Assembly (NCBI GenBank): GCA_963674745.2
Contig: CAXXDV010000001.1
Coordinates: 96,001 to 160,000 of the forward strand
Length of the DNA: 64,000 bases
Direction: 5' to 3'
From: Desulfosudaceae bacterium
GTDB taxonomy: Bacteria > Desulfobacterota > Desulfobacteria > Desulfobacterales > Desulfosudaceae
The first letter of the stretch is position 1. The number at the start of each line of letters is the position of its first letter. The position numbers were made by a program, and so were the translations under genes. Under the pieces are notes generated by a model. The model ran no database searches, had not been told where the DNA came from, and saw only the letters and a list, made by a program, of their open reading frames with translations. Below, in pieces: positions 8,982-61,056 of this stretch.

Positions 8982-9126
8982 GGGGTTCGGGGTTCAGGGT
9001 TTGCAATCCAAACCGATTTTTTCATGTAGGGGCACCCCCCTGTGGGTGCCCTTTCATCGTGCGGCCACAGGGGGCCTTCCCCCACATAATCACCTAAACA
9101 CTTAAACACTTAATCACCCAACCACG
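8982..9126. repeat. Composite repeat island: 7-mer G/T arm, GTAG-REP doublet, 8-mer C/A arm
   Basis: GGGGTTC-type repeats, GTAGGGGCACCCCCCTGTGGGTGCCC at 9026, then AATCACCT, AAACACTT and similar octamers. Confidence 0.75.
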
Positions 9127-11945: not shown

Positions 11946-12058
11946 TGATCATGTTTATGTAACGATTGGTTGTATTAAGCAAATTGCGTAATTTTCAGTG
12001 CAGTCGGTGGCTTTGAAAGGGTTCAAGGATTCAAGGGGTCGAATAAACAAGGACATAA

Positions 12059-18316: not shown

Positions 18317-18366
18317 AGCCGATACGATTATTAATTATGGATCTTCTCCAATTTAGTGCCTGCGCA

Positions 18367-18451
18367 GGGCTCAAGGATTCAAGGAGCCGAGGGTTCAAGG
18401 GATTATTATTGTCGTTTACTTGACCCCTTGAGTCCTTGAATCCTTGGCCCC
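18367..18451. repeat. Inverted pair of degenerate 8-mer (TTCAAGGA) tandem arms
   Basis: Left arm GGGCTCAAGGATTCAAGGAGCCGAGGGTTCAAG, right arm CTTGACCCCTTGAGTCCTTGAATCCTTGGCCC. Left-arm-only copies occur near 12019-12043 and 55226-55260. Confidence 0.75.
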
Positions 18452-24200: not shown

Positions 24201-25766
24201 AACATAGGAGTCGGTGTCATCACAATCCGTATTGTCGGCCACGTAACCGTCGGGGCAGTCAACAGCCTCTTTGGTGACATCGGGATTTCCGTAACCGTCC
24301 CCATCTGCATCCCGGTACCAGGTAACCATCGGGCAGGCCGGATCACTGCCGTCACAATCCTGGTCGATGCCGTCACCACAAACCTCAACGGCCCCGGGAT
24401 GGATACCGGCGTCGTTATCGTTGCAATCCCGGTTTGAACAGTAACCGTCCTGATCTGCATCGATACAGACCACGGGGCATCCTTCATCCACCGCCCCGTC
24501 ACAATCATTATCAATACCGTCGTTACAGACTTCCGTAGCGCCGGGGTTGACGGCAGCATCCGCATCATCACAGTCTACATCTGAGCAATAACCATCCTGG
24601 TCCGCATCGATGCAGACGGTACATCCCTCGTCCACCGCTCCGTCACAGTCATTGTCGATGCCGTCATCACACACTTCCTGCGAACCGGGATTAACAGCGG
24701 CATCCGTATCATCACAGTCCGTATTGTTGCCCACATATCCGGTCGGGCAGGTATCCGCCTCAACGGCATCATCGGGATAACCATACCCGTCCCCATCGGC
24801 ATCCCGGTACCAGGTGGCCAGGTTGCCATTCACCGGGCAAAGCGGCCCGCCGTTGCGGCTGGAACCGGCAATCACCTCAAAGTCACCGATAACCAGCCCG
24901 GGCCCGATCGGCACCGAGCAACTGGTATGGACCCGGGCATATTCGGCATCATTTACAAAGATATCAATCCACGGGCTTAAGGTCCCTTTCATGTCCCGAC
25001 CGATAATGGTGATCTGCCCGCCGGACGCAACCTGACCGTCAAACACCACTTCTCCTTCTTTTTGTTCGATCTTTACCAGTACCGACCCGACGCCATTGTA
25101 CTGCAGGGTCAGTTCGGAGACCTTTCCTTCGCATGGTGCGCAAATATCCAGGCCAAGGGTTGTTCGTAAATGGGTCAGTGCCTGGGTACCTGTTCGCAGC
25201 CATCGCAGCTCACAATCAGGGAATACACAATTCTCGTTGAATTCATCAAAAAGGGTTTTTAAATCTTCATAACTGGCAAAATTAAAACCGGACAGGTCAA
25301 AGGTGACCTGTCGCGTTAGCAGTTCCGATCGCACCTTTTCGCTGATCTGAATGCCGTTTTCCAAATTGCCGTCTTCATCCAGTGATTGAAGCAATCGGCA
25401 CAGGTTGATCACAGCCGGGTCGGTATCGTACAGCGCACCATCAACAAGGTCTAAGGGACTCATGAGTGATTTGGCTGTTGCCTGCCCCAGAAACAAATCG
25501 CCCAGGAAAAATTTTATGGTTTCGCCAGGTTTAAACAGGAACCCACCGTTTTCATCTGTGAGCCCGGATTGAGTCGTGGTCTGAAAGAATAACCCCTGAA
25601 CCGGACTGTCAATAAAAACGCCTTCCTGAACTGCCGCAACATTATTATCCGAAGAGCCTCCCCCATTACTGCATCCTGAAAAACAGATACAAGAAAGCAT
25701 CAATAAGAGAACCATTAACCCCGGAAAACTGAACGGCTTACTTATGATTCGAGAAAATCGTTTCAT
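21240..25766 (-). CDS. Large surface lipoprotein with MopE-like putative metal-binding repeats and two C-terminal DUF1566 (Lcl-type) domains
   Basis: Lipobox FSGC; seven Cys/Asp-rich units (WYRDADGDGYG or CIDADQDGYC...DCDD...PG..E.C.DGID.DCDG); propeller-like WDG repeats; two domains of the form D..TGL.W...GYNDWR.PT.KEL...YWTGT...VR.VR. Confidence 0.88.
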   Translation of the reverse strand: MKRFSRIISKPFSFPGLMVLLLMLSCICFSGCSNGGGSSDNNVAAVQEGVFIDSPVQGLFFQTTTQSGLTDENGGFLFKPGETIKFFLGDLFLGQATAKSLMSPLDLVDGALYDTDPAVINLCRLLQSLDEDGNLENGIQISEKVRSELLTRQVTFDLSGFNFASYEDLKTLFDEFNENCVFPDCELRWLRTGTQALTHLRTTLGLDICAPCEGKVSELTLQYNGVGSVLVKIEQKEGEVVFDGQVASGGQITIIGRDMKGTLSPWIDIFVNDAEYARVHTSCSVPIGPGLVIGDFEVIAGSSRNGGPLCPVNGNLATWYRDADGDGYGYPDDAVEADTCPTGYVGNNTDCDDTDAAVNPGSQEVCDDGIDNDCDGAVDEGCTVCIDADQDGYCSDVDCDDADAAVNPGATEVCNDGIDNDCDGAVDEGCPVVCIDADQDGYCSNRDCNDNDAGIHPGAVEVCGDGIDQDCDGSDPACPMVTWYRDADGDGYGNPDVTKEAVDCPDGYVADNTDCDDTDSYVNPGHLTVCRLTNDMVSDARRPSIYNDTIAWLRGTYPKQVMYLRDGRTQVLSNYGYGNGLDLSIYGDAAAWLEYQNSRISVKYWGGSTNPDGSPADIITLWDEPGTKWRPSVYNGTVAWLANLEVLYWDGSFDVNGDPVIINVSNSEEQNEYNLSQYNGTITWGSLETVPGGDTIRRIYFWDGNTVFKLKDSSEDEHGFSINPTVWNGIVAWNQSDGNDYEIVCWEGEFDAAGKPVLTWVTDNDWYDGEPVVDDGMIVWWGDDPVDGDMEIYYWDGSEVRQLTHNNFMDDGPQVHNGRIAWVGYPGGTPGPGEIFYSMAPCSEPDLLMTYYRDADNDGYGDAADSVQAIVCPEGYVSDATDCDDTDAGVNPGADDLCGDGIDQDCDGEDERCPVTTPTWYRDADGDGYGNPDVSITFSIRPPGYVADNTDCDDSDDDVHPGAAEICGDGIDQDCDGSDLACQPGTWYRDADGDGYGDAADATVAATCPAGYVEDNTDCDDHDAAVNPGADEICGDGIDNDCDGDMADAPGNIAGLYQGTVSGIAWGSTPIQGDWMVDLGADGSMAFTGTGISVIGEANGTGTVDSSGLVSMIINVPVVGNLQGAGRIDCDGNFTFEIAEVAFSFSAVFSSDGCLSGAWEVQSAAGGDFAGCIGVATSNVPDTGHVICYDDVGNTLDPCPVEGERFFGQDPCYTINPPSFTKLDENGNDLPDSAAVWVMVRDNVTGLIWEVKTDDGGLHDLDDLYSWYDFEDVFLAQLNADNFGGYNDWRMPTVKELCWLADMGRSQPAIDTAYFPYTEGFSSTYWTGTTEASYTADAWTVYFYTGLGRPHDPASCQTKYNTRHVRAVRGPKTSPSFVNNGDGTVSDRTTGLMWSRDTVDLNNDGVLDVNDTMFWEGAINYCENAVLAGYNDWRLPTIKELISIIDYESYNPCIDTDFFPDTVLDAYWTGTSWRPHMTLRVLFDRGNQYQQDKDYEVGFYVRMVRGGQ

Positions 25767-26199: not shown

Positions 26200-27456
26200 A
26201 TGCCCATGTCAGACGCGTTTAAAGAACGGCTTTTCCCGAACGTGGAAAAAATTGCCGATCACTTCGGCACGCCTTTTCATATTTATGATGAAGCCGGTAT
26301 CCGTGAAACCGGTCAGGCGGTTGTGTCCGCGTTCTCAAAGATAGAAGGGTTCCGGGAATTTTTCGCGGTCAAAGCACTGCCCAATCCGACCATAATGGAA
26401 ATCATGCGGTCCATGGGGTTCGGTTTTGATTGCAGCTCCACCCCCGAACTGGTGCTTTCCCGGAAGATCGGAGCCGGCCCGGATGACATCATATTTACTT
26501 CAAACAATACCTCAACAGAAGAGTTTGAAGCCGCCCGGGCTGACGGCGGCTGCATCCTCAATCTGGATGACATATCTCTGATCGAGAAGGTGCCTGAGTT
26601 GCCGGAATTGATCTGCTTCCGATACAATCCCGGCCAACGGCGTACGGGCAACGATATCATCGGCAACCCGGTGGAAGCCAAGTACGGTCTTACCCACGAC
26701 CAGATGATCACCGCTTATCAGAACGTGTATGACAGGGGTGTCAGACGGTTCGGCCTGCACGCCATGATCGCCTCCAATGAGCTGAACTACACCTATATGG
26801 TCACTACCGCCAGAATGCTGCTGGAACTGGCCGAAGACATTTCACGGGATTTACCCATCCGGTTTGAGTTCATCAACATCGGGGGCGGGTTCGGCATTCC
26901 CTATCGGCCCGAGGACGAACCCCTCGATATCATGACCATGGGCGCGGATATCTGTGCCGCTTTTTACCGTTTTTCCCAGGACAACGGTTACGCGCCCAAA
27001 CTGTTTATCGAAAGCGGCCGTTACATGACCGGGCCGCACGGCGCGCTGGTCACAAGAGTGATCAACCACAAGCAGATTTACCGGAAATATGTCGGTGTTG
27101 ATGCCAGCATGTCCGCCCTGATGCGTCCCGGCATTTACGGTGCTCACCATGAGATAAGCGTGCCCGGGAAAACCGGGGGCAACCTGGAGCGGGTGGATGT
27201 GGTCGGCGCCCTGTGTGAAAACATCGACAAGTTCGCCATCCAGCGCCTGTTACCGGAAACCGCGGAAGGGGACCTGATGGTGATCCATGACACCGGCGCC
27301 CACGGCATTGCTATGGGGTTTAACTATAACGGCCGGCTGAGGCCCAAAGAGCTGCTTTTGCGCCAGGACGGCCGTGTCGAATTAATCCGCCGGGCGGAAA
27401 CCATGGACGACTATTTCTCAACGCTCCATTTTGAAGAGGATGTTTTAGGGTTTTAA
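26200..27456 (+). CDS. lysA: Diaminopimelate decarboxylase
   Basis: TPFHIYDE, FFAVKALPN, AKYG, INIGGG, ESGRY, GALCEN and GFNYNG. Confidence 0.95.
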   Translation: MPMSDAFKERLFPNVEKIADHFGTPFHIYDEAGIRETGQAVVSAFSKIEGFREFFAVKALPNPTIMEIMRSMGFGFDCSSTPELVLSRKIGAGPDDIIFTSNNTSTEEFEAARADGGCILNLDDISLIEKVPELPELICFRYNPGQRRTGNDIIGNPVEAKYGLTHDQMITAYQNVYDRGVRRFGLHAMIASNELNYTYMVTTARMLLELAEDISRDLPIRFEFINIGGGFGIPYRPEDEPLDIMTMGADICAAFYRFSQDNGYAPKLFIESGRYMTGPHGALVTRVINHKQIYRKYVGVDASMSALMRPGIYGAHHEISVPGKTGGNLERVDVVGALCENIDKFAIQRLLPETAEGDLMVIHDTGAHGIAMGFNYNGRLRPKELLLRQDGRVELIRRAETMDDYFSTLHFEEDVLGF

Positions 27457-27815
27457 GGTTTTAAAGTTTTAGGTTTTAAAGTATTTGAGTGTTACGCTTT
27501 AGGTTTTAAGCATAAGGTGGTTAAGTGGTTATGTGATTAAGTGATTAAGTGTTTAGGTGGTCGAGGTTTGAGAAAGGGAGATGGCCCGCTTTGCGGGTGC
27601 AAGGTTCATGGTTTGAGGGGTGCTAGGTGGTTAAGTGATTCGATGAAAATGGTGAAGATAGAACTTAAGCCCTTAACCACATAAACACTTAAACACCTAA
27701 ACACAAAAAACTTAATGTCTGGGAACTTCCCGGAAGGCCGAAGCCTTCCGCTACATAAAACGTAGAGCCTAACACCTCAAACCTTAACCACATAAACACT
27801 TAAACACATAACCAC
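27443..27815. repeat. Composite repeat island between lysA and der
   Basis: (TTTTAAGG)n then (AAGTGRTT)n left arms, a CCCGCTTTGCGGG hairpin, C/A-rich inverted octamer arms, and the REP GGAAGGCCGAAGCCTTCCGCTAC at 27732-27754. Confidence 0.85.
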
Positions 27816-27887
27816 AAATTTTTTAACGACGATCAGGCCATATTAAGAACGACTATATTTTAACGTCATTTTTATCGCAAGCGCCCT

Positions 27888-29261
27888 ATGAAACCCGTTG
27901 TTGTCATCACCGGCCGGCCCAATGTGGGCAAATCCACCATCTTTAACCGTCTGACCCGGTCAAGGGACGCTATTGTCGATGACATGCCGGGGGTAACCCG
28001 GGACCGCCATTACGGCGACGCGGAATGGAACGGCCTGGCCTTTACCATCGTCGACACGGGCGGCTTCATGACCGGCGACCCGGATGATATCGTAACGCAA
28101 GTGAACTTTCAGATCCGCCAGGCCCTTGACCACGCTGACGCCATCCTGCTGGTGATGGACGGGAAAAACGGTGTTTCGCCTTATGACCGTGAGATATTGA
28201 CCGTTCTCCAGGATTCGCCCTGCCCGGTTTTCTACCTGATCAACAAAATCGACGGCGAAGAAAAAGAGACCGAATGTTTTGAATTTTACAGCCTGGGCAT
28301 AGACCAATTATATCCCGTATCCGCCGCCCATGGTTACGGCATCAATACCTTTATGGATGATTTAACGGCTGTTTTGCCCGAACCGGAGCCGGAGGATGAG
28401 GAAGAAAGGATTAAAGTCGCGGTAGTCGGCAAACCCAATGTCGGCAAGTCGACCCTGATCAACAAAATCCTCGGCGAAGAGCGCCTGATTGTCAGTGATA
28501 TTCCCGGAACCACCCGTGACAGCCTGGACACGGTCTGCGAAAGAAACGGACGGTCATATCTATTAATAGACACGGCCGGCTTACGGAAAAAAAGCCGGGT
28601 CGAGGAAAAAATTGAAAAATTTTCCGCTTTAAAAACATTACGAAGCCTGGACCGGTGCGATGTGGCCCTCATTCTCGTTGATGCCGCCGATGAAGTATCC
28701 CAGCAGGACATCACCATCGCCGGATATGCCTTCGAACATCGTTGCGGCTGTATTTTTGTGGTCAACAAATGGGATCTTGCCAAACAGGAAGGGAAAAAGG
28801 CAAAGGACTATGTGGATGAGATCCGGGACCAGGCCAAATTTTTAGGTTTTGCGCCGGTCATGAATGTTTCCGCAAAAACCGGCTGGCATGTAAACAAACT
28901 TTTTGACCATATTGACGAAGTATATAATCAATATTCCGTTCAAATCAAAACCGGGAAGTTGAATTCCATTATCAGAAAAGCGGTGGAGCGAAACCTGCCG
29001 CCCTATCATAAGAACAACCGGCTGAAATTCAATTACGCCACCCAGATATCAACCAAACCGCCGACATTCATATGTTTTGTTAATTTCCCCAAGGGCATCC
29101 ATTTTTCCTATGAACGATACCTGGTCAACGAAATCAGAAAAGAGACCGGCCTTGACAAAACCCCGTTGCGACTCTTTTTCCGGGAAAAAACCGGCCGGAT
29201 TGATTATTCCAGCCGGAAAAAACGCCCGGCAAAACGGAGGAAACGGGGGCACGACAAGTGA
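27888..29261 (+). CDS. der: Ribosome biogenesis GTPase Der (EngA)
   Basis: Two G domains (GRPNVGKS/DTGG/NKID and GKPNVGKS/DTAG/NKWD) plus a KH-like C-terminus. Confidence 0.98.
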   Translation: MKPVVVITGRPNVGKSTIFNRLTRSRDAIVDDMPGVTRDRHYGDAEWNGLAFTIVDTGGFMTGDPDDIVTQVNFQIRQALDHADAILLVMDGKNGVSPYDREILTVLQDSPCPVFYLINKIDGEEKETECFEFYSLGIDQLYPVSAAHGYGINTFMDDLTAVLPEPEPEDEEERIKVAVVGKPNVGKSTLINKILGEERLIVSDIPGTTRDSLDTVCERNGRSYLLIDTAGLRKKSRVEEKIEKFSALKTLRSLDRCDVALILVDAADEVSQQDITIAGYAFEHRCGCIFVVNKWDLAKQEGKKAKDYVDEIRDQAKFLGFAPVMNVSAKTGWHVNKLFDHIDEVYNQYSVQIKTGKLNSIIRKAVERNLPPYHKNNRLKFNYATQISTKPPTFICFVNFPKGIHFSYERYLVNEIRKETGLDKTPLRLFFREKTGRIDYSSRKKRPAKRRKRGHDK

Positions 29262-29701
29262 TTAAGTGATTAAGTGATTAAGTGATTAAGTGATTATGTG
29301 ATTATGTGTTTAAGTGTTTAAGTGATTAAGTGGTTAAGTGGTTAAGTGGTTAAGTGGTCGGGGTTTGAGGAAAGGAGGTGCCTTTTACTTCGTCATCCGG
29401 ACGAGCAAACTGTGTCGTAATTCGTTATCCAGCCAAGTGGATATTTCTTTAACGGGTGCCACGGGCCAACCGAAGGTTGCCCGTGTTTAAGGGCGACCAG
29501 CCGGTCGCCCCTACAGGGTGAGCTGGGATGACGGGTTGTGGGACAGGCCGAAGCCTTCCGCTACATAAACAATAGACGTTAAAGCCCATAACCACATAAA
29601 CCCATAAACACATAACCACATAATCACATAATCACATAATCACATAACCACTTAATCACTTAATCACTTAAACACTTAAACACTTAATCACTTAATCACA
29701 T
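29256..29701. repeat. Inverted octamer minisatellite arms enclosing REP-like hairpins
   Basis: 13 copies of AWGTGDTT (29256-29359) and 14 copies of the reverse complement, e.g. AATCACTT and AACCACAT (29590-29701). The interior holds three short palindromes. Confidence 0.92.
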
Positions 29702-29742
29702 CTAACTTTAAACCCTATACAGACCGCAGCACTGGAATATCC

Positions 29743-31131
29743 ATGACCGAATTGTTCGATCATATACATCCCGATTCAACCGGCCGGCCACTGGCCGACA
29801 GGATGAGGCCCAATACACTTGAAGCCCTGGCCGGGCAGGCCCATATCACCAACCCGGGCTCCCTTTTCAGAGCGGCCCTGGAAACAGACGCGCTTTTTTC
29901 CATGATCCTCTGGGGTCCGCCGGGATGCGGTAAGACCACCCTGGCCAACATCATCGCCAACATGACCGGTGCGGTATTCGTCCAGTTATCCGCGGTGCTT
30001 TCAGGGGTCAAAGATATTCGAACCGTTATTGAGGCGGCCAGGGAAAGGCGCGACCGGTTCGGCAAAAAAACCATCCTTTTTGTGGACGAAGTGCATCGTT
30101 TCAACAAGGCCCAGCAGGACGCCTTCCTGCCGCACGTTGAAAGCGGCCTGGTCACGCTGATAGGCGCTACCACCGAGAACCCCTCTTTTGAGGTCATTCC
30201 GGCCCTGATGTCCAGATGCCGGTTGGTCACCATGAACCCGGTGGGTGATGAAGCGATGGAAGCCGTGCTGCAAAGGGCGCTGACGGACACTGACAACGGG
30301 CTGGGTGAAATGGGGCTGTCCCTGTCGGATGAGGCCATGACGCATATCATCCGCATGGCTGACGGTGATGTCCGCACGGCCTTGAACAGCCTGGAAGCGG
30401 CGGCCTTATTGCGCGGCTCAGGAGAGGCCCCCGAAGACATCTCCCTTGAACAGGTGGAGGCGGCACTGGACAAAAAAGCCATGCTGTATGACAAGTCCGG
30501 CGAAGAACATTTCAACCTTATTTCGGCCGTGCATAAAAGCCTGCGGGGAAGTGATCCCGACGCGGCGGCATACTGGGTGGAGCGGATGCTCGGCGCGGGT
30601 GAGGATCCATTTTATATTCTCCGCCGGATGGTAAGGTTCGCTTCCGAAGATATCGGCAATGCCGATCCGGCGGCACTCGGTGTCACCCTGGATGCCATGG
30701 AGGCCTACCGCTTTCTCGGTTCCCCCGAAGGGGAGCTGGCCATTATTCAGGCCGCGGTCTATCTGGCCACCGCCCCTAAAAGCAACAGTCTTTACGTGAC
30801 CAGCAACACCGTCAAAGGCATCATTAAAAAAACGGGTTACCTGCCGGTACCCAAGCATATCCGGAACGCACCCACCCGGCTGATGAAAGAGATCGGCTAT
30901 GGCAAAGATTATAAATACGCCCATAACTATAAAGGCGCTTTTGCCCCCCAGGACCATTTACCGGAAAAACTGTGGGACAGGATTTTTTATCACCCCACGG
31001 ACCGGGGCTATGAAAAAACGATCAAGTCCAGGCTTGACAGGTGGCGGGTTCTCAAGAGAGAATACCGGGAGAAAAATCGGACACGCCAACGTGAGGGCTC
31101 CGATAAAGACCATTCGGAGAACGACTTTTGA
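29743..31131 (+). CDS. rarA: Replication-associated recombination protein A (MgsA)
   Basis: PLADRMRP, LWGPPGCGKTT, DEVHRFNKAQQD, GATTENPSF and SAVHKSLRGSDPDA. Confidence 0.96.
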   Translation: MTELFDHIHPDSTGRPLADRMRPNTLEALAGQAHITNPGSLFRAALETDALFSMILWGPPGCGKTTLANIIANMTGAVFVQLSAVLSGVKDIRTVIEAARERRDRFGKKTILFVDEVHRFNKAQQDAFLPHVESGLVTLIGATTENPSFEVIPALMSRCRLVTMNPVGDEAMEAVLQRALTDTDNGLGEMGLSLSDEAMTHIIRMADGDVRTALNSLEAAALLRGSGEAPEDISLEQVEAALDKKAMLYDKSGEEHFNLISAVHKSLRGSDPDAAAYWVERMLGAGEDPFYILRRMVRFASEDIGNADPAALGVTLDAMEAYRFLGSPEGELAIIQAAVYLATAPKSNSLYVTSNTVKGIIKKTGYLPVPKHIRNAPTRLMKEIGYGKDYKYAHNYKGAFAPQDHLPEKLWDRIFYHPTDRGYEKTIKSRLDRWRVLKREYREKNRTRQREGSDKDHSENDF

Positions 31132-33694: not shown

Positions 33695-33745
33695 GCGCCT
33701 TAGGTGCGATCCTTAGCGGCTGGTATTCAGCATTTCAGGCGGGAA

Positions 33746-34036
33746 GGGTTTTAGGGTGTTAGAGTTTTAAAGTTTTAGGGCTTTAAGGTTTGGGGCTTGA
33801 GCAGATATGTAGGGGCACGGCGTGCCGTGCCCCAGGATAACAAAAGGAACGTCCAAAAAATAACAAGAGAAGCGGCTCGACGAATAAAAATGAAAGGACT
33901 TATAATACGAGATTAACGCCTAAAACCCATAACCACATAATCACCTAAACACTTAATCACTTAACCACTTAAGCACCCTGAAAGGCTGAAGCCTTTCGCC
34001 ACCTAAAACCATAAAACATTAAAACCCTAAAACCCC
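33746..34036. repeat. Composite repeat island
   Basis: (TTTTAGGG/TTTTAAAG)n left arm, REP GTAGGGGCACGGCGTGCCGTGCCC at 33809, C/A octamer right arms, and GAAAGGCTGAAGCCTTTC at 33980. Confidence 0.8.
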
Positions 34037-34083
34037 TGCGAAGCAGGCAGCCACGCAGAGGAGGGAGCAATCCTTCCTTGGGA

Positions 34084-34207
34084 CCCGGCTTTGTAAAACG
34101 TTCAAGGTCAAGGCGCGCGAATCCCGACGATTGAAGCTGTACAGGTAGTACGCTGATTGAGGAGGGATGAAGCGCAACGCAGAGATTGAGCGTTTTACAA
34201 AGCCGGG
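34084..34207. mobile_element. MITE-like / structured palindromic element related to the one at 924-1065
   Basis: Perfect 17-bp terminal inverted repeats CCCGGCTTTGTAAAACG/CGTTTTACAAAGCCGGG. The core GGTCAAGGCGYGCGA...GCRCAACGC is shared with 924-1065. No target duplication is seen. Confidence 0.6.
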
Positions 34208-34208
34208 C

Positions 34209-38906: not shown

Positions 38907-38908
38907 AA

Positions 38909-39208
38909 GGTTTTAAGGTTTTAGGGTCGGAGGGTCGAGGGTTCGGGGTTTGAGGTTCGGGGTTCGCGATGACGATGTAGGGGCACGGCGTGCCGTGCCC
39001 GATTGGGGGTTCAAGGCTCGGGGCCCAGGAAGGCGTTCGCTCTTTACGGCCTGTAGGGGCACGGCGTGCCGTGCCCGATTCGGGGGTTCAAGGTTCGGAG
39101 TTCGAGATGACGATGTAGGGGCACGGCGGGCCGCCTTATTTCTCAAACCACATAACCACTTAATCACTTAACCACCTGAACCATAAAACTTTAAAACTCT
39201 AAAACCTT
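38909..39208. repeat. Composite repeat island between convergent genes
   Basis: 8-mer and 7-mer (GGTTCGG) left arms, three GTAGGGGCACGGCG REPs and C/A octamer right arms. Confidence 0.85.
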
Positions 39209-39218
39209 ACGCCCGATT

Positions 39219-40538: not shown

Positions 40539-40823
40539 GGGCAGGCACGGGGGCCTGTCCCTACAACATTCACGAACGCCCACCACGGACCCGTAGGGGC
40601 AACCCCCTGTGGTTGCCCTTCACCGGGCAGGCACGGGGGCCTGTCCCTACAACATTCACGAACGCCCACCACGGACCCGTAGGGGCAACCCCCTGTGGTT
40701 GCCCTTCACCGGGCAGGCACGGGGGCCTGCCCCTACAACATTCACGAACGCCCACCACGGACCCGTAGGGGCAACCCCCTGTGGTTGCCCTTCATCAGGG
40801 CAGGCACGGGGGCCTGCCCCTAC
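40539..40823. repeat. Tandem array of GTAG-type REP doublets, 86-bp period
   Basis: Units start at 40539, 40625, 40711 and 40798: GGGCAGGCACGGGGGCCTGYCCCTAC, an identical linker, then GTAGGGGCAACCCCCTGTGGTTGCCC. Confidence 0.92.
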
Positions 40824-40957
40824 AATGCCCGGGCCAGGAGCCCGAACCTCGGACCCCGAACCCTGAACCTCTTTCCCTTTCAGAGTTGATTCCGACCCGA
40901 AATAATTGGTATATATATTAAATGAATGTTAATAAATAACGATCTAACGGGGAAATC

Positions 40958-44745: not shown

Positions 44746-45023
44746 GGAAGGCTAAAGCCTTCGTTATTTGATGGAAGGCTGAAGCCTTCCGCTGCAGATA
44801 TCACAACCTGTGGCTTGCCCGGGTCTGCCCCCCGCAAAGCGGGCCGCCCCATTCCTCAAACCCCGGCCACCTAACCACTTAACCACTTAATCACATAACC
44901 ACTTAATCACTTAAACACCTGAACGCTGAATGGACGTGATTCACAATCGGGCACGGCACGCCGCATCGGGCACGGCACGCCGTGCCCCTACAGTCATCCC
45001 AAGCCCCGAACCTAAAACCTTAA
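44746..45023. repeat. Composite repeat island downstream of rnpB
   Basis: Two GGAAGGCTRAAGCCTTC palindromes, CCCGCAAAGCGGG, C/A octamer arms and GGGCACGGCACGCCGTGCCCCTAC. Confidence 0.8.
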
Positions 45024-45032
45024 AATAAAAAA

Positions 45033-45432
45033 CGGTCGGAGTGACCCGTAAGCCGAATTCTGTTCTCCGTTCGGGTTGCCCCGGACAGAGCGGCGATCAT
45101 TCATCTGGGGCCGCCGGTCACCCGGCGCCTCATGCGACCTACCCGGAAGCTCGGGCGGGGCCACCCTCAAACGCCTCCCTATTTGGCCTTGCACCGGATG
45201 GGGTTTACCAAGCATTCCCGGTCACCCGGGAATCTGGTGCGCTCTTACCGCACCTTTTCACCCTTACCCGGAACCTGCAGCCCTAAAGGCCGCCGGGACC
45301 GGGCGGTATATTTTCTGTGGCACTTTCCTTCACGTCACCGTGACTTCACGTTATGAAGCATCCCGCCCTGTGGTGTTCGGACTTTCCTCCACAGCCAATA
45401 TGCTGCAGCGATCGCCTGGATCGCTCCGACCG
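45033..45432 (-). ncRNA. rnpB: RNase P RNA (type A)
   Basis: Minus strand has GAGGAAAGTCCGAAC, GAAAGTGCCACAGAAA, GGTAAACCCC..GTGCAAG and CAGAATTCGGCTTA. The ends CGGTCGGAG/CTCCGACCG pair as P1. Confidence 0.97.
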
Positions 45433-47314: not shown

Positions 47315-47417
47315 ATCGCTCTCCCTTGCACCAAAATTTTCACGAGTCGGCCTGAGCGCCGACCCCTGATTCCTTCTTCAAGGCACAACACACCAACTCA
47401 CGTAGGGGCCACGGCCT

Positions 47418-47751
47418 GTAGGGGCAACCCCCTGTGGTTGCCCTTACCGGGCAGGCACGGGGGCCTGCCCCTACAATATTCATAAACAACCGCCACGGCC
47501 TGTAGGGGCAACCCCCTGTGGTTGCCCTTCACCGGGCAGGCACGGGGGCCTGCCCCTACATTATTCATGAACGCCCACCACGGAATCATGAACATTCTCC
47601 GCGGCCTGTAGGGGCAACCCCCTGTGGTTGCCCTTCACCGGGCAGGCACGGGGGCCTGCCCCTACAATATTCATAAACAACCGCCACGGCCTGTAGGGGC
47701 AACCCCCTGTGGTTGCCCTTTTACCGGGCAGGCACGGGGGCCTGCCCCTAC
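47418..47751. repeat. Array of four REP doublets
   Basis: GTAGGGGCAACCCCCTGTGGTTGCCC...GGGCAGGCACGGGGGCCTGCCCCTAC at 47418, 47502, 47608 and 47693, with linkers in A-B-A order. Confidence 0.92.
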
Positions 47752-47846
47752 AACGTTAGCGAGCGGCCTGCATCACAGCAGAAATACCCGAATTGACCCG
47801 CCTGAGGGGTGAATTCTTTAACATAAAAATTCATGGGAAAAAATAA

Positions 47847-48135: not shown

Positions 48136-48173
48136 TCTTATAGACCAGAATCCTGAAAAAATCTCTTTTTTAG

Positions 48174-48330
48174 GGGCAGGCACGGGGGCCTGCCCCTACA
48201 TTATTCATGAACGCCCACCACGGAATCATGAACATTCTCCGCGGCCTGTAGGGGCAACCCCCTGTGGTTGCCCTTCACCGGGCAGGCACGGGGGCCTGCC
48301 CCTACATTATTCATGAACGCCTGCCCCTAC
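48174..48330. repeat. REP array between rpoD and the tRNA
   Basis: 48174-48305 is identical to 47534-47665. Confidence 0.9.
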
Positions 48331-48340
48331 AGCATTCAGG

Positions 48341-50473
48341 TTAGCTTTCCTCCATAAAGTGTTTCAGCTTCTTGCTCCGGGTCGGATGCCGCAACTTCCG
48401 CAAGGCCTTGGCCTCTATCTGCCGGATGCGTTCCCGGGTAACCGCGAAGTCCCGGCCGACCTCCTCCAGGGTATGGTCCGCTTTTTCACCGATACCGAAA
48501 CGCATGCGAAGCACTTTCTCTTCACGCGGTGTCAACGTGGCCAGCACTTTTCTGGTCTGTTGCGACAAGTTCAGATTCACCGCGGCATCCGAAGGGATCA
48601 TAAACTTTTTATCCTCGATAAAATCACCCAGATGACTGTCTTCTTCCTCACCAATAGGCGTTTCCAGGGAAATCGGTTCCCTGGCGATCTTGAGCACCCG
48701 CCGGACTTTGTCCAGAGACACTTCCATTTTTTCCGCGATTTCTTCGGGTGAGGGTTCGTATCCCCGTTCCTGAACAAGGTAACGGGAGGTCCGGATAAGC
48801 TTGTTGATGGTTTCAATCATGTGAACCGGGATCCTGATGGTCCGGGCCTGGTCCGCGATGGCCCGGGTGATGGCCTGCCGGATCCACCAGGTGGCGTACG
48901 TGCTGAACTTGTATCCCCGCCTATACTCGAACTTATCCACGGCTTTCATCAGGCCGATATTGCCCTCCTGGATCAGATCCAGGAACTGAAGTCCACGATT
49001 GGTGTATTTCTTGGCAATACTGACTACCAGGCGCAGGTTTGCCTGCACCAGTTCGCCCTTGGCGTCTCTGGCCCGGGCATAGCCATCTGCCACTTTTGAC
49101 ATCACCCGTTTTAAGGCACGGCTGTCGGCCATCAATGATGTTTCACGAAGAGAAATCTGTTCGTCAAGCTCTTTAAGCCTGTTGAACACTTCCCCCAGTT
49201 CTTTTTTGGTCGACTTGGAACGCCCGTCGGCCCAGGACATGAATCCGGTTCTGGTTTTCAGATTGGCCCGCAAGGTAGTGGCGGAGATATTGATGCCGAC
49301 GGTACCGGCGCACGCTTCCATGAGATTGAACTGCTGGTCGAACCAGTATAGCTGCTCGCGAATGCGGCCTTCGATATTCACCATCACCTCATTTTCAATC
49401 CGCCAGTTCATCAGGTGTTCAAATATTTTATTGTTGCGGCGTGTCAGGGCATCCCTGGTGCGTTTTCGTTCCGCTTCGGATACCTGAGAAGACATGAGCT
49501 GCTCGCGTTGACTGATGTTCTCCGCATCCAACTGTTTGATAACGCGGATCGTCTCCAGGAATCCCTCCACCCGTTTTTCCTCGTCTTCGCTGACATCTCC
49601 TTCATCCACGTCTTTTAAAACAAACTTCGGCCGCAAGTTGCCGGACTCAATATTATCGCCCAGGGCAATGATACTCTCGACCCCGATGGCCGTCTCCAGC
49701 ATACTTTTCAATGCCTCCTGCTCGCCGGCTTCAATTTTTTTGGCAATTACGACCTCGCCTTCCCGGCTTAACAGGGTCACCAGTCCCATTTCACGGAGAT
49801 ACATCTTGACCGTATCGCCGACACCGCCAAAAGCAGAAGCGGGTTTTTTTTCAGGGCTTTTTTTGGCGGCAGCCTTTTTCTTTTTTTTCTGGTCCGCTTC
49901 TTTAACGACAAGAACCTTTGCCTTCTCCAGACAGACCATGGCCTCGTCCATCTGCTCAGCGGCAATATTCAACTCTGTCATCGATTGTTCAAGCTCCTCA
50001 TAAGTTAGTGTTCCCTGCTTTTTGCCCTTGGCAATCACGTCTTTTAATATTTTCTTGAGCGGCGACTTCTTTTTGGGCGCGGTTTTCTTGCGGGAAGCTT
50101 TCCCGGCCGCCGTTTTAGTCTTAACAACTTTGTTCACAACTTTTCCTTTCCTGGCAGCCGTTTTTTGAGGTGCCGTTTTCTTGGCAACCTTTTTCTTGAC
50201 CGCCGTTTTTTGAGGTGCCGTTTTCTTGGCAACCTTTTTCTTGGCCGCCGTTTTTTGAGGTGCCGTTTTCCTGGCAGCCGTCTTTTTCGTTACGGTCTTG
50301 CCCTTGGGAGCGGCTTTCCCGGTGGCCTTGCTGCCGGCATTGGTTGCTTTTCCGGCGGCTTTGGCCGGCGCGGTTTTCCGCCTGGTTGCGGTTTTTTCGG
50401 CAGTTGCAGCTTTCGCGGCAACTTTCTTCTTTTTTGCAGATGAATTCTTTTTACCAGAAGATGTACGCGCCAT
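48341..50473 (-). CDS. rpoD: Primary sigma factor sigma70 with a Lys/Ala-rich N-terminal extension
   Basis: [71 protein letters not shown] and [10 protein letters not shown]; downstream of dnaG. Confidence 0.98.
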
Positions 50474-54127: not shown

Positions 54128-55225
54128 ATGTTTAAACTGGTTCCAACCGAAGACTACCGTCAAGCCGTAAGAATCCGCCGTTTTTTTCTGGCTGTTTACG
54201 GTTATATGGTATGGATGCTGACAATCCTGGCCGGCCAGATGGTGGGGTTATCCCACTGGTCATATCCGACTATTGCCGCCTGCTGGGCGATGATGTTTTT
54301 GGGCATGGGCGTTGTCTACCTCCTGCTGCGGACCGGATTCAATAAACGCTTTAAAGACCCCAGCCTGACCGTTCTGCAAATGGTGCTGGCCTGCGTCTGG
54401 GCGGGCGTAGCCACCTACTACACGCTCAGCCCCATCCGGGGCAGCATCATCGCCCTTTATGTGATTATTTTTGTCTTCGGCATCTTCCGCCTGTCCTTAA
54501 AAGATTTTTTCGCCATGGTGGCGGTGGCTATCATTACCTATGCCGGTGCGGTTGCCCTGCTTTACCACCATCATCCGGAAATGGTCGACCGTTCTCTGGA
54601 AACCGTCCGGACCACCCTGCTGGTGGTGGCGCTGTTGTGGTCTTCTTTGATCGGATCGTATATCAAGAAGCTGAGAGAAAAAATGGTCAGGACCAACACG
54701 GAATTGCAGAGCGCCCTGAAACGAATCGAGCAACTGGCCATTCACGATGAATTGACCGGTGTTTACAACCGGCGGCACCTGATCGACATCCTGGAGCGGG
54801 AAAAAGCCCTGGCCGACCGTACCGGCGTTAATTTTGCGGTGTGCCTGCTCGACCTTGACGATTTCAAGCAGATCAATGACACCTATGGTCACCTGGCCGG
54901 AGATACGGTGCTCAGGAATTTTTCCCAGGCCATCAAAGAGGATATTCGCCGGGAAGATTATGTTGCCCGGTATGGCGGCGAAGAATTCATTATCCTTTTT
55001 ACCGGTGCCCGGTGCGTGGACAACGGTACCGACTGTGCTATGAGACTTCAGGCCGTCACCCGGCGGCTGACATTTGAAGATGTCCACCCGTCAATCCGCG
55101 TGACGGTCTCCATCGGCATGACGATTTACCGTTTTGATGAATCCATAGATGATCTTCTGTCCAGAGCGGACACGGCCATGTACCGGGCCAAAAACGCTGG
55201 CAAGGACAGGGTGGAATATCTCTGA
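54128..55225 (+). CDS. Membrane-bound diguanylate cyclase
   Basis: Multiple TM helices, DELTGVYNRR, DLDDFKQINDTYGHLAGD, an RxxD I-site (RRED), RYGGEEF and ADTAMYRAK. Confidence 0.95.
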   Translation: MFKLVPTEDYRQAVRIRRFFLAVYGYMVWMLTILAGQMVGLSHWSYPTIAACWAMMFLGMGVVYLLLRTGFNKRFKDPSLTVLQMVLACVWAGVATYYTLSPIRGSIIALYVIIFVFGIFRLSLKDFFAMVAVAIITYAGAVALLYHHHPEMVDRSLETVRTTLLVVALLWSSLIGSYIKKLREKMVRTNTELQSALKRIEQLAIHDELTGVYNRRHLIDILEREKALADRTGVNFAVCLLDLDDFKQINDTYGHLAGDTVLRNFSQAIKEDIRREDYVARYGGEEFIILFTGARCVDNGTDCAMRLQAVTRRLTFEDVHPSIRVTVSIGMTIYRFDESIDDLLSRADTAMYRAKNAGKDRVEYL

Positions 55226-55943
55226 GGGTTCAAGGATTCGAGGGTTCAAGGGGTCAAGGGGTTTAAAGAGGCAGGGGCCTGCGGATACCGGGGGTTCCAG
55301 CTTAAAGTTTTAGGGTTTTAAGGTTTTAAGGTTTTAGAGTTTTAGAGTTTTAGGTTTCAAGGGATTTTCTGGGCTTCGAGTTTAAGTGGTTAAGTGTTTA
55401 TGTGATTAAGTGGTTAGGTGGTCGGGGTGTGAGAAGTGGGGACGGCCCGCTTTGCGGGAGTAAAGTCGGGGTTGGAGGTTGTAGGGGCACGGCGTGCCGT
55501 GCCCTTTTATCGGGCGGCACGGGGGCCTGGCCCTACATCGTTCATGAACATTTCCCACGACCTGTAGGGGCAACCCCCTGTGGTTGCCCTTCACCGGGCA
55601 GGCACGGGGGCCTGCCCCTACAATTGTTCATGAACATTTCCCACGGAATCATGAACATTTTCCGCGGCCTGTAGGGGCACGGCGTGCCGTGCCCTTTTAT
55701 CGGGCGGCCACGGGGGCCTGGCCCTACATCGTTCATGAACATTTCCCACGACCTGTAGGGGCAACCCCCTGTGGTTGCCCTTCACCGGGCAGGCACGGGG
55801 GCCTGCCCCTACAATTGTTCATGAACATTTCCCACGGAATCATGAACATTTTCCGCGGCCTGTAGGGGCACGGCGTGCCGTGCCCTTTTATCGGGCAGGC
55901 ACGGGGGCCTGCCCCTACATTTTTCATGAACAACCGCCCCTAC
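55226..55943. repeat. Composite repeat island with three octamer arm types and a higher-order REP array
   Basis: TTCAAGGA, TTTTAAGG and AAGTGRTT arms, CCCGCTTTGCGGG, then 190/191-bp units starting at 55481, 55671 and 55862. Confidence 0.92.
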
Positions 55944-58173: not shown

Positions 58174-58239
58174 TACCGCCAGAAAGCAGAGATATGATAA
58201 TGTCCCGGCCAGTTATTCCCCCCCCTATTATGGATTTCT

Positions 58240-58383
58240 GTAGGGGCAACCCCCTGTGGTTGCCCTTCACCGGGCAGGCACGGGGGCCTGCCCCTACATT
58301 ATTCATGGACGCCCACCACGGCCCGTAGGGGCAACCCCCTGTGGTTGCCCTTCACCTGGGCAGGCACGGGGGCCTGCCCCTAC
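58240..58383. repeat. Two REP doublets
   Basis: Same REP pair as 40539-40823, with a related linker. Confidence 0.9.
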
Positions 58384-58469
58384 ATTATTACCCGAACCTA
58401 AAACATTTAACTTCATTCCGGGGCACAACACTCTACTAATTAAAAGACCGGACCCGGAGGCGGTCCATA

Positions 58470-60775: not shown

Positions 60776-61056
60776 GTAGGGGCGGCCCCCTGTGGCCGCC
60801 CAATGACAGGGCACCCACAGGGGGGTGCCCCTACAAGGGCAGAAACACCTCAGGCCGATAACCACCTGAAACCCTAACGCCCTGAAACGTTAAAACCCCT
60901 TGCGAAGCAGGCACCTGAAACCTTAAAACCCCGACCCCATAATCACATAATCACATAATCACTTAATCACTTAATCACCCGAAACCCAATCGGGCACGGC
61001 ACGCCGTGCCCCTACATAGTCACCCTAAAACTTTAACACCTTAAAACTTTAAAACT
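60776..61056. repeat. Composite repeat island within the polysaccharide locus
   Basis: REP doublet at 60776-60834, C/A octamer arms, a GCGAAGC mini-hairpin and GGGCACGGCACGCCGTGCCCCTAC. Confidence 0.8.

Follow-up and report, generated by a model that had tools for sequence, protein, structure and literature searches.

The spacer between der (27888–29261, + strand) and rarA (29743–31131, + strand) in a Desulfosudaceae bacterium features two facing arrays of octamer repeats at 29256–29701 that enclose a palindrome-bearing interior. The locus lies on contig CAXXDV010000001.1 of GenBank assembly GCA_963674745.2; positions 96,001 to 160,000 of this contig, 64,000 nucleotides in all, are called the window in the following, and coordinates count from its first letter. 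The left arm (29256–29356, + strand) consists of 12 exact AWGTGDTT units at 29256–29351 and one partial unit, AAGTGGTC. The right arm (29587–29701) has its G/T-rich strand on the − strand and consists of 13 exact units at 29590–29701 plus a near match at 29598. Tandem Repeats Finder (TRF) assigns 12.6 copies of an 8-nt unit with 94% matches to the left array and 14.4 copies with 89% matches to the right one. The original prediction, made from the sequence alone, had 13 units facing 14 across about 230 bp: the distance holds, and the counts therefore include near matches. The stop codon TGA of der (29259–29261) lies inside the first unit of the left arm, and 42 nt separate the last unit of the right arm from the ATG of rarA (29743). 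In the whole window, AWGTGDTT has 71 matches against 13.0 expected from dinucleotide shuffles (sd 3.5, largest 23), and a pattern of three such units has 31 matches against 0 expected.

The interior spans 230 bp (29357–29586). A core, GTGGTCGGGGTTTGAGGAA (29354–29372, + strand), follows the A-type array of the left arm and recurs at 27557, at 55418, and—on the − strand—at 44852. The three palindromes that had been predicted for the interior correspond to three short inverted repeats at 29393–29404, 29460–29485, and 29488–29513. The last of these is a repetitive extragenic palindrome (REP) with a GTAG tag on the − strand, and a second GTAG REP lies at 29542–29564, likewise on the − strand. The unit AWGTGDTT is free of any G-run and, hence, does not qualify as a G-quadruplex former. 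The Rfam 15 covariance models have no match in 27400–29760 at E up to 1; over the whole window they match only RNase P RNA and two tRNAs.

The two arms are of unequal length, and the order of their variant units is not mirrored. Identical variants tend to be adjacent: the left arm contains six such adjacent pairs against 3.1 expected upon shuffling (p 0.021) and the right arm five against 1.9 (p 0.011), and 14 of 41 long arrays feature the same clustering at p < 0.05. Together with the unmirrored order, this fits local duplication within each arm; the arms lengthen by local duplication, that is, by slippage.

The der–rarA spacer is one of at least 10 array sites in the 64 kb. Six spacers hold pairs (8982/9083, 18366/18426, 27442/27663, the focal site, 33745/33930, and 38907/39146), and four hold single arms (the short array 40841–40869; 44867–44918 with 45005–45030; 55225–55422; and 60840–61056). 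Facing octamer arrays in many intergenic gaps are, hence, real as judged by TRF and shuffles, and so is every other site, paired or single-armed, that had been named at the outset. The one unit assumed there, AWGTGDTT, gives way to at least three unit families: AAGTGRTT; GTTTTARG; and GGGTTCRA or GGGTTCG. The sites lie outside long open reading frames (ORFs), save for a few codons at gene ends.

Polarity of facing arrays

The arrays of all six pairs in the window follow one order, G/T-rich first and C/A-rich second, including the pair 18366/18426 with its weaker G/C skew. The original prediction had placed the G/T-rich arm on the left regardless of gene direction. The order stands in 6 of 6 pairs, but the indifference to gene direction does not, because single arms follow 3' ends in sense orientation. 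That indifference is also partly automatic: an inverted repeat looks identical from either strand, which leaves just two configurations, and every pair uses the same one.

For comparison, species-representative genomes were scanned with the three-unit pattern, that is, with one unit family as the seed, which yielded at least 109 loci. These counts are lower bounds, and a seeded scan says nothing about the frequency of this unit relative to others. After removal of L054, a duplicate of L053, 108 loci were analyzed; the counts for other genomes given below refer to these listed loci. According to the record titles, the matches listed come from Bacteroidota (many of them Saprospiraceae), Desulfobacterales including Desulfonema magnum, Lentisphaerae, Kiritimatiellae, Planctomycetota, Verrucomicrobiota, beta- and gammaproteobacteria, Chloroflexota, Acidobacteriota, Elusimicrobia, and others. 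No ortholog of the der–rarA spacer is found among them; only a phoH fragment (L006, 70% identity) and a 150-bp element (L081) match the window.

TRF was run over the window and the 108 loci to assess polarity; arrays with a period of 6–10 were kept if they had 2.5 copies or more and a G/C skew no smaller than 0.5. Neighboring arrays up to 150 bp apart run G-then-C in 34 cases and C-then-G in 3; up to 60 bp apart, the numbers are 31 and 2. Pairs that include a seeded array contribute 22 versus 3, and pairs without one 12 versus 0 (p = 5e-4). The three exceptions are a coding 9-mer, the border of two successive complexes, and one true reverse palindrome (L089), so that the ratio is 34 to 1 with the artefacts removed. 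This evidence for one polarity across phyla and units is new here. Among the loci analyzed, one rule holds from Bacteroidota to Desulfobacterota and Chloroflexota, and its 34-to-1 strength asks for a mechanism. An assembly artefact—the refutation considered from the start—does not account for the arrays, because they are also present inside the complete genome of D. magnum (L074).

The D. magnum locus features, as read from its sequence, four facing arrays in 5 kb, each with a different unit and its own complement. Complementarity between the arms is 0.95, 0.77, and 0.76 for three of them; the fourth (1192/1265) falls under the skew cut-off and is unscored. Since the units are specific to a site and matched by their own complements, the arms at one site must be made or kept together. 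One fixed repeat template is an unlikely source, as the unit differs at each of the four facing arrays.

Two G/T-rich strands that meet at their 3' ends would have exactly this polarity. The arrays could be scars of DNA ends, with C-poor repeats added or copied onto two 3' ends at a break or a cleaved hairpin that were then rejoined in the manner of a fused telomere. Such a reaction would fit the 7–8-nt units with their degenerate variants, the content of only 3% C on the G-rich strand of the arrays, and the many pairs whose arms abut with 0–10 nt between them. In 122 versus 4 of 188 arrays (DNA parameters), self-folding is also better for the G/T-rich strand than for its complement, and this strand could prime on itself; however, the better self-folding is a trivial consequence of G-T wobble. 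The site-specific units with matching complements argue against one fixed template, the block-wise variants fit slippage, and the window holds no reverse transcriptase, primase-polymerase, or end-joining gene beyond an ordinary dnaG. We consider an origin from DNA ends very improbable, and the same holds for the claim that the near-universal polarity was left by an active DNA-end reaction and not by a selection filter. In that case, C-poor repeats would be synthesized on, or would fold back from, 3' ends produced when a hairpin or break is processed, with subsequent sealing. If true, this reaction would be a bacterial counterpart of chromosome healing.

Eukaryotic telomeres and interstitial telomere fusions feature 7–8-nt units with degenerate variants, the G/T-rich strand running 5' to 3' toward the junction. 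The window sites differ from them by lying internally in a housekeeping region, by their many unit families, and by the lack of an end and of telomerase. The description telomere-like, used in the original prediction, holds for unit length and strand bias only and not for function: telomeric repeats sit at the end of a linear replicon and are maintained by a templated enzyme, and all array sites in the window are internal, among clusters of housekeeping genes.

REPs, recurring modules, and known relatives

The window carries 41 GTAG REPs of four types, which are GC-rich palindromes of 23–26 nt. A GTAG REP is defined as a GC-rich palindrome of 20–40 nt with a terminal GTAG tag and a high copy number, which describes the interior of the focal site and not its arms. 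REP2 (+) and REP3 (−) alternate about 32 nt apart with GTAG outside at 40539–40825, 47409–47753, and 55480–55932. The 41 REP matches in the window compare with 0 in the 108 listed loci carrying the same arrays, and the core is likewise found in none of them. Because REPs and core are missing from all of these loci, octamer arrays and REPs are separate systems. With dimers and singles, the window is unusually REP-dense for 64 kb. Tandemly reiterated head-to-head dimers lie at 48170–48330 and 58236–58390 in addition to the three clusters named above, with periods of 85–191 bp.

Arrays and REPs join in recurring modules. The module of A-type array, core, and hairpin occurs in both orientations in copies that are 87–91% identical over 67–77 nt, and the module of GGGTTCG array and REP1 recurs with 89% identity over 57 nt. 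A half-site is a recurring inward-pointing module—a G/T-rich array followed by a GTAG REP—and single arms are half-modules. Modules with 87–91% identity are, therefore, parts of a mosaic copied around the genome.

This copying raises the question of mobility, with the arms as terminal inverted repeats of a nonautonomous element that moves whole or as half-modules. Such an element would resemble a MITE (miniature inverted-repeat transposable element) or a pair of REPs forming a hairpin (REPIN), and a REP-associated transposase could perhaps be encoded elsewhere. The recurrence of half-modules in both orientations speaks for it, as does a different element (923–1066), a 96% identical copy of which sits elsewhere in gene context in a Desulfobacterales metagenome-assembled genome (MAG). 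GTAG REPs are substrates of REP-associated transposases according to the available sections of PMC3733652, and insertion sequence (IS) elements lie at a fixed distance from paired octamers in Geobacter according to those of PMC2700814. However, no two whole sites have common ends or a common length, and the arrays occur in many phyla without the REPs of the window. The defined ends, target-site duplication, and uniform length of a MITE are absent: the sites differ in length and content, and reading of the flanks of 29256 and 29701 reveals no direct repeat common to both. Nowhere in the window do arms enclose a gene. All 55 window proteins that were scanned belong to housekeeping families and include no transposase, a REP-associated tyrosine transposase among those absent. 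We regard the mobile-element origin as quite improbable, and ends of a mobile cassette, one of three roles offered by the original prediction, find little support given the lack of an enclosed gene, the unequal arms, and the missing target duplication.

The element at 923–1066 is palindromic, with a length of 150 bp, inverted ends, and 68% identity to its own reverse complement. Its copy at 101–249 of L081, which aligns with 922–1070 of the window, follows directly upon an A-type array and has a different adjacent gene. It looks like a MITE common to related genomes; because the gene context differs between the copies, small elements move in this lineage. A second palindromic element of about 125 bp lies within 34036–34208 beside C/A-rich arrays. 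Its ends, CCCGGCTTTGTAAAACG and the complement thereof, pair with each other, and a 21-nt piece of it resembles the 923–1066 element.

Paired arrays as such are known. The available sections of Rehm et al. 2015 (PMC4692102) describe intergenic heptamer arrays, GGGAATC in Xanthomonas and GGGGAYT in Nostoc, many of which form convergent pairs—70 and 75 of them in two Xanthomonas strains—and vary in length among close relatives. The Xanthomonas repeats are transcribed, under-represented in divergent spacers, and oriented by a strand rule, the G-rich strand being coding after a stop and non-coding before a start. According to the same sections, their sites are positionally more conserved than control spacers, and no function was found despite reporter and transcriptome work. 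The window arrays share with them the tandem units of 7–8 nt, the almost wholly intergenic location, the convergent pairs on opposite strands, the strand rule, and the rarity in divergent spacers. They differ by a focal unit without a G-run, by octamers, by at least three families per genome, by arrays that exceed the four units preferred there, and by REPs in the center (comparison with PMC4692102 as available). In terms of membership, tandem intergenic units of 7–9 nt in 3–4 or more copies and convergent G-rich pairs are present, and G-tracts are absent from the focal unit. Since the focal unit has no G-run, the G-quadruplex cannot be the common principle.

For the interior, the comparison extends to D. 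alkenivorans, which is probably a species of the Desulfobacterales. One GTAG REP family of this species appears in the available sections of Di Nocera et al. 2013 (PMC3733652), in which GTAG REPs and their head-to-head dimers are defined. REPs are mainly located between unidirectional and convergent ORFs, and the dimer with GTAG outside is their commonest form. The interior palindromes share the GTAG end, the GTAG-outside dimers, the tandem clusters, and the preference for unidirectional and convergent spacers. In contrast, the octamer arms are neither palindromes nor REPs and occur in other phyla without these REPs. A description of REPs flanked by arms of simple sequence repeats (SSRs) was not found in the REP literature as far as those sections extend.

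Two further systems resemble the arrays. In Geobacter metallireducens, paired tandem octanucleotides on opposite strands are described by Aklujkar et al. 2009 (PMC2700814, available sections). The GTTGCTYN and MTYCTGA sites share tandem units of 7–8 nt, mostly opposite-strand pairing, a variable distance, and many copies, but have other units, only 4–5 copies per site, and an annotation as regulator binding sites. The one-directional TAACTGA arrays common to Beggiatoaceae, cyanobacteria, and Bacteroidetes (MacGregor 2015; PMC4679880, available sections) are likewise abundant tandem intergenic heptamers in distant phyla that abut start codons and whose stop codons limit gene overlap. Unlike the window arrays, they comprise 169 direct sets and one indirect repeat, have 2–6 copies, and carry C and G on one strand of the unit.

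The kind of structure is, hence, already known, from convergent pairs of 7–8-nt SSRs and from head-to-head dimers of GTAG REPs. To call it undescribed was too strong, given the paired arrays reported for Xanthomonas, Nostoc, and Geobacter and an interior of ordinary GTAG REPs. New here are an octamer without G-runs and the union of such arrays with REPs into one mosaic. Four 16-mers of the focal array match no paper, searches of the literature on tandem, inverted, and octamer repeats, on STRR, and on Desulfonema brought up nothing specific, and a mechanistic follow-up on the GGGAATC repeats was not found. Unit length is narrowly distributed: 120 arrays outside the seeded family search have units of 7 nt (49), 8 nt (48), 6 nt (9), 9 nt (9), and 10 nt (5). 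Intergenic repeats of 7–8 nt are over-represented in many bacteria, and the window, with a focal unit free of G-runs, suggests that the phenomenon does not depend on G-quadruplexes.

Regular arrays with two fixed degenerate positions in the unit (AWGTGDTT) at so many sites in 64 kb could also act as DNA. They would be bound by a protein of the nucleoid-associated, regulatory, or partition type, with the unit as the binding register and opposed filaments on the two arms. Bacterial interspersed mosaic elements (BIMEs) of Escherichia coli bind integration host factor and gyrase. The paired octanucleotides of Geobacter are annotated as predicted "global regulator binding sites" in the available sections of PMC2700814. 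Against such a role, one protein cannot read three or more unrelated unit families in this genome and dozens across the listed loci, copy number is free to vary, and an 8-bp period places successive sites on different helix faces. There is also no candidate gene nearby among the 55 window proteins. We judge protein binding at the DNA level to be improbable.

Folding, gene context, and a possible role at the RNA level

The focal site folds strongly on both strands. The + strand RNA reaches −203.9 kcal/mol (z −12.8) and the − strand DNA −111.3 kcal/mol (z −13.6). In both folds, the arms pair in a stem of about 100 nt in slip register with about one mismatch per unit, which agrees with the slip-register hairpin of about 100 bp proposed for either strand. 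Over 41 pairs, the complementarity of true partners averages 0.51 compared with 0.35 for shuffled partners. The gap between arms is richer in GC than the arms (0.49 versus 0.37), and the fold is more stable than in shuffles (z < −2) for only 7 of 26 gaps. Among 173 perfect hairpins outside arrays, the 5' arm is G-rich in 36, C-rich in 15, and neither in 122; ordinary hairpins in the same DNA, hence, carry a weaker form of the polarity bias. At the three co-directional window sites compared, sense RNA has a slight edge in stability over antisense RNA and contains more G-U pairs (3/3), a weak hint.

The sites favor the 3' ends of genes. When window spacers of 100 nt or more are counted, arrays are present in all four convergent spacers, in five of the 12 co-directional spacers, and in two of the five divergent spacers; these last two hold short single arms. 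Arrays abut or overlap stop codons, and the stops of tadA and of a diguanylate cyclase gene touch an array. Three single-arm modules (44831, 55225, and 60840) come shortly after the 3' end of a gene or RNA, and their G/T-rich strand is the sense strand. The paired sites obey the strand rule known from Xanthomonas, as do the single arms 40841, 45005–45030, and 55225. For other genomes, a longest-ORF heuristic gives a rough distribution of spacer types at pairs (++ 7, −− 7, +− 7, and −+ 1); the heuristic mis-called three window sites. Start codons occur at 0.132 per nt on the G strand of arrays and at 0.001 on the C strand, and an arm reading into a downstream gene, therefore, cannot start translation.

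The element is best read—with about an even chance of being right—as a BIME-like intergenic mosaic in which two distinct repeat systems occupy common permissive spacers and have a role in punctuation at the RNA level. The first system would be SSR-armed hairpins, facing arrays of 7–8-nt units whose 5' arm is G/T-rich and nearly C-free on either strand; these arrays would grow and shrink by local duplication, and their architecture appears widespread in bacteria. The second system would be lineage-specific GTAG REPs, as singles and head-to-head dimers, in the center. The spacer would be transcribed along with its flanking genes, and the RNA would fold into an imperfect slip-register stem of about 100 bp with the REP hairpins as a cap. 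Enterobacterial REPs and BIMEs act as mRNA punctuation, an action that the REP literature summarizes (PMC3733652); by analogy, the stem may act as a barrier to 3' exonucleases. It may also be a site for RNase III or for pausing between cistrons, as distinct from a classical hairpin-plus-U terminator. An RNA-level role is favored because the sites lie where REPs and terminators usually lie yet are not classical terminators, and an RNA-level device fits best among the three roles originally offered.

The polarity would then be an exaggerated form of the bias of ordinary hairpins. An arm without G beside a start codon would create neither false start codons nor Shine-Dalgarno-like runs, and the first-made arm would avoid a C-rich, G-less stretch on which Rho would be expected to load. 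Stop-codon insulation was rejected as the cause, as the two strands do not differ in this respect: 138 versus 140 of 188 arrays contain stops in every reading frame. The window also shows that paired repeats and REPs reside together in BIME-like mosaics.

Several points weigh against a punctuation role. RNA-level action in this organism is something that we infer, and sense and antisense RNA differ little in stability (n = 3). Not every pair can be accounted for by a hairpin, since 11 of 41 score 0.25 or less for complementarity and just 8 of 41 score above the shuffled partners' 95th percentile. The strand rule is broken by the G-type array at 12006–12036, which lies in sense orientation upstream of phoH, and by C/A-rich units at 60840 that extend to the start side of their spacer. 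Single arms in co-directional spacers elsewhere occur in both orientations (13 versus 20 by a crude ORF call), and the equal share of all-frame stops belongs here as well. Because only 42 nt precede the rarA ATG, the focal structure may be part of an operon transcript, in which case a strong barrier might do harm. A hairpin with a U-tract was not found on the + strand within 29262–29742 (scan of 27300–29900), and T/A runs of at least 4 nt adjoin 9 of 85 arms compared with 14 of 84 positions 40 nt away (44 complexes). With the U-tract missing after the focal right arm and T/A runs not enriched, classical termination is not the general role and the intrinsic terminator was discarded; a T6 run after 27816 and one D. 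magnum site are the exceptions.

A neutral or selfish origin accounts for most of the same facts. Slippage-prone repeats and REPs would pile up in harmless 3'-end spacers, the hairpin would have no role, and purifying selection would merely filter the orientation that survives beside starts and stops. The block structure of variant units is what slippage leaves behind, and the arrays fill spacers as far as the stop codons, some of which they provide themselves, as with the TGA of der and the last four codons of lysA. The unequal arm lengths, the unmirrored variants, and the pairs with non-complementary arms (11/41) also fit, and the contrast in start codons between the two strands makes an orientation filter at starts plausible. 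The lack of a function for the Xanthomonas repeats in the available account (PMC4692102) points the same way, but their greater positional conservation relative to control spacers points the other way. A filter at starts also leaves the polarity in convergent spacers unexplained (all four in the window, and seven pairs by the crude call). It does not predict site-specific units matched by their own complements, nor the excess of 7–8-nt units (97 arrays) over 6- and 9-nt units (18) among the 120 arrays. We hold the neutral origin to be unlikely, although it deserves appreciable weight beside the mosaic with a punctuation role.

Individual array sites and minor observations

The paired site at 8982–9126 fills a convergent spacer with a GGGGTTC array, a REP dimer, and a CACTTAAA array that ends at the hisF stop. 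The short pair at 18366–18446 between nnr and tsaE consists of AGGGTTCA facing CCTTGAAT. Between lysA and der, the site at 27442–27826 starts with a GTTTTAAG array, which codes for the final four lysA codons and the stop TAA, and continues with a GTGGTTAA array, core, and hairpin; its second half features two C/A-rich arrays around a GTAG REP and then the T6 run. The site at 33745–34035 comprises a AGGGTTTT array and REP1, followed by TAACCACT and CCTAAAAC arrays. In the convergent tadA/coaBC spacer (38907–39209), AAGGTTTT and GGGTTCG arrays face AACCACTT and TAAAACTT arrays across two copies of REP1.

The short single CCCGAAC array at 40841–40869 (− strand) lies in a divergent spacer upstream of plsC, after the REP dimer cluster 40539–40825. 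The module at 44831–45030, read on the − strand, consists of short GTTTTARG and GGTTCGGGG units, REP1, an A-type array, core, and hairpin; the GTTTTARG and GGTTCGGGG units (45005–45034) directly adjoin the RNase P RNA gene (45034–45427, − strand) at its 3' end. The + strand module at 55225–55480 is located after the diguanylate cyclase stop and features AGGGTTCA, GTTTTAGG, and TTAAGTGG arrays, core, and hairpin, with REP dimers onward to 55932. The module at 60840–61056, read on the − strand downstream of the stop of a polysaccharide export gene (61100), holds a TAAAACTT-type array, REP1, a CATAATCA array, and degenerate units. The short array at 12006–12036, immediately upstream of the phoH start in sense orientation, is of GGGTTCAA type. 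Only the GGGTTCR and GGGTTTTA arrays of the window have GGG and could form a G-quadruplex.

Each focal arm contains a sigma-70-like match by consensus (TAAACA, 16 nt, CATAAT; 9/12), at 29605–29632 (+) and 29320–29293 (−). These matches point outward, toward rarA and antisense into der; the region holds eight in total against 3.3 in shuffles, which is not far above. The G/T-rich strand of A-type units (29256–29356; also L002, L014, and L079) is presumably complementary to part of the conserved 3' tail of 16S rRNA, and the AGGTGA variants of other genomes would be so to a greater extent. ATGTGA units read as a start codon with a stop codon immediately after.

In short-read MAGs, an array lies at the extreme contig end in L014, L015, L019, L031, L034, L060, L066, and L098, and arrays, hence, appear to break assemblies. 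In practical terms, arrays supply stop codons, interrupt short-read contigs, and serve as variable-number tandem repeat (VNTR) markers. Tandem repeats of another kind lie within genes of the window: a 144-bp repeat at 24435–24719 in the gene of a 1508-aa MopE/Lcl-domain protein, and a 15/45-nt repeat at 50157–50281 in the 5' part of an rpoD-like sigma-70 gene. The longest array among the matches listed is found on a Metamycoplasmataceae contig (L072, 857–2109), where 156 copies of TGTGTGCG stand beside 23 copies of TGTGGTTA on one strand.

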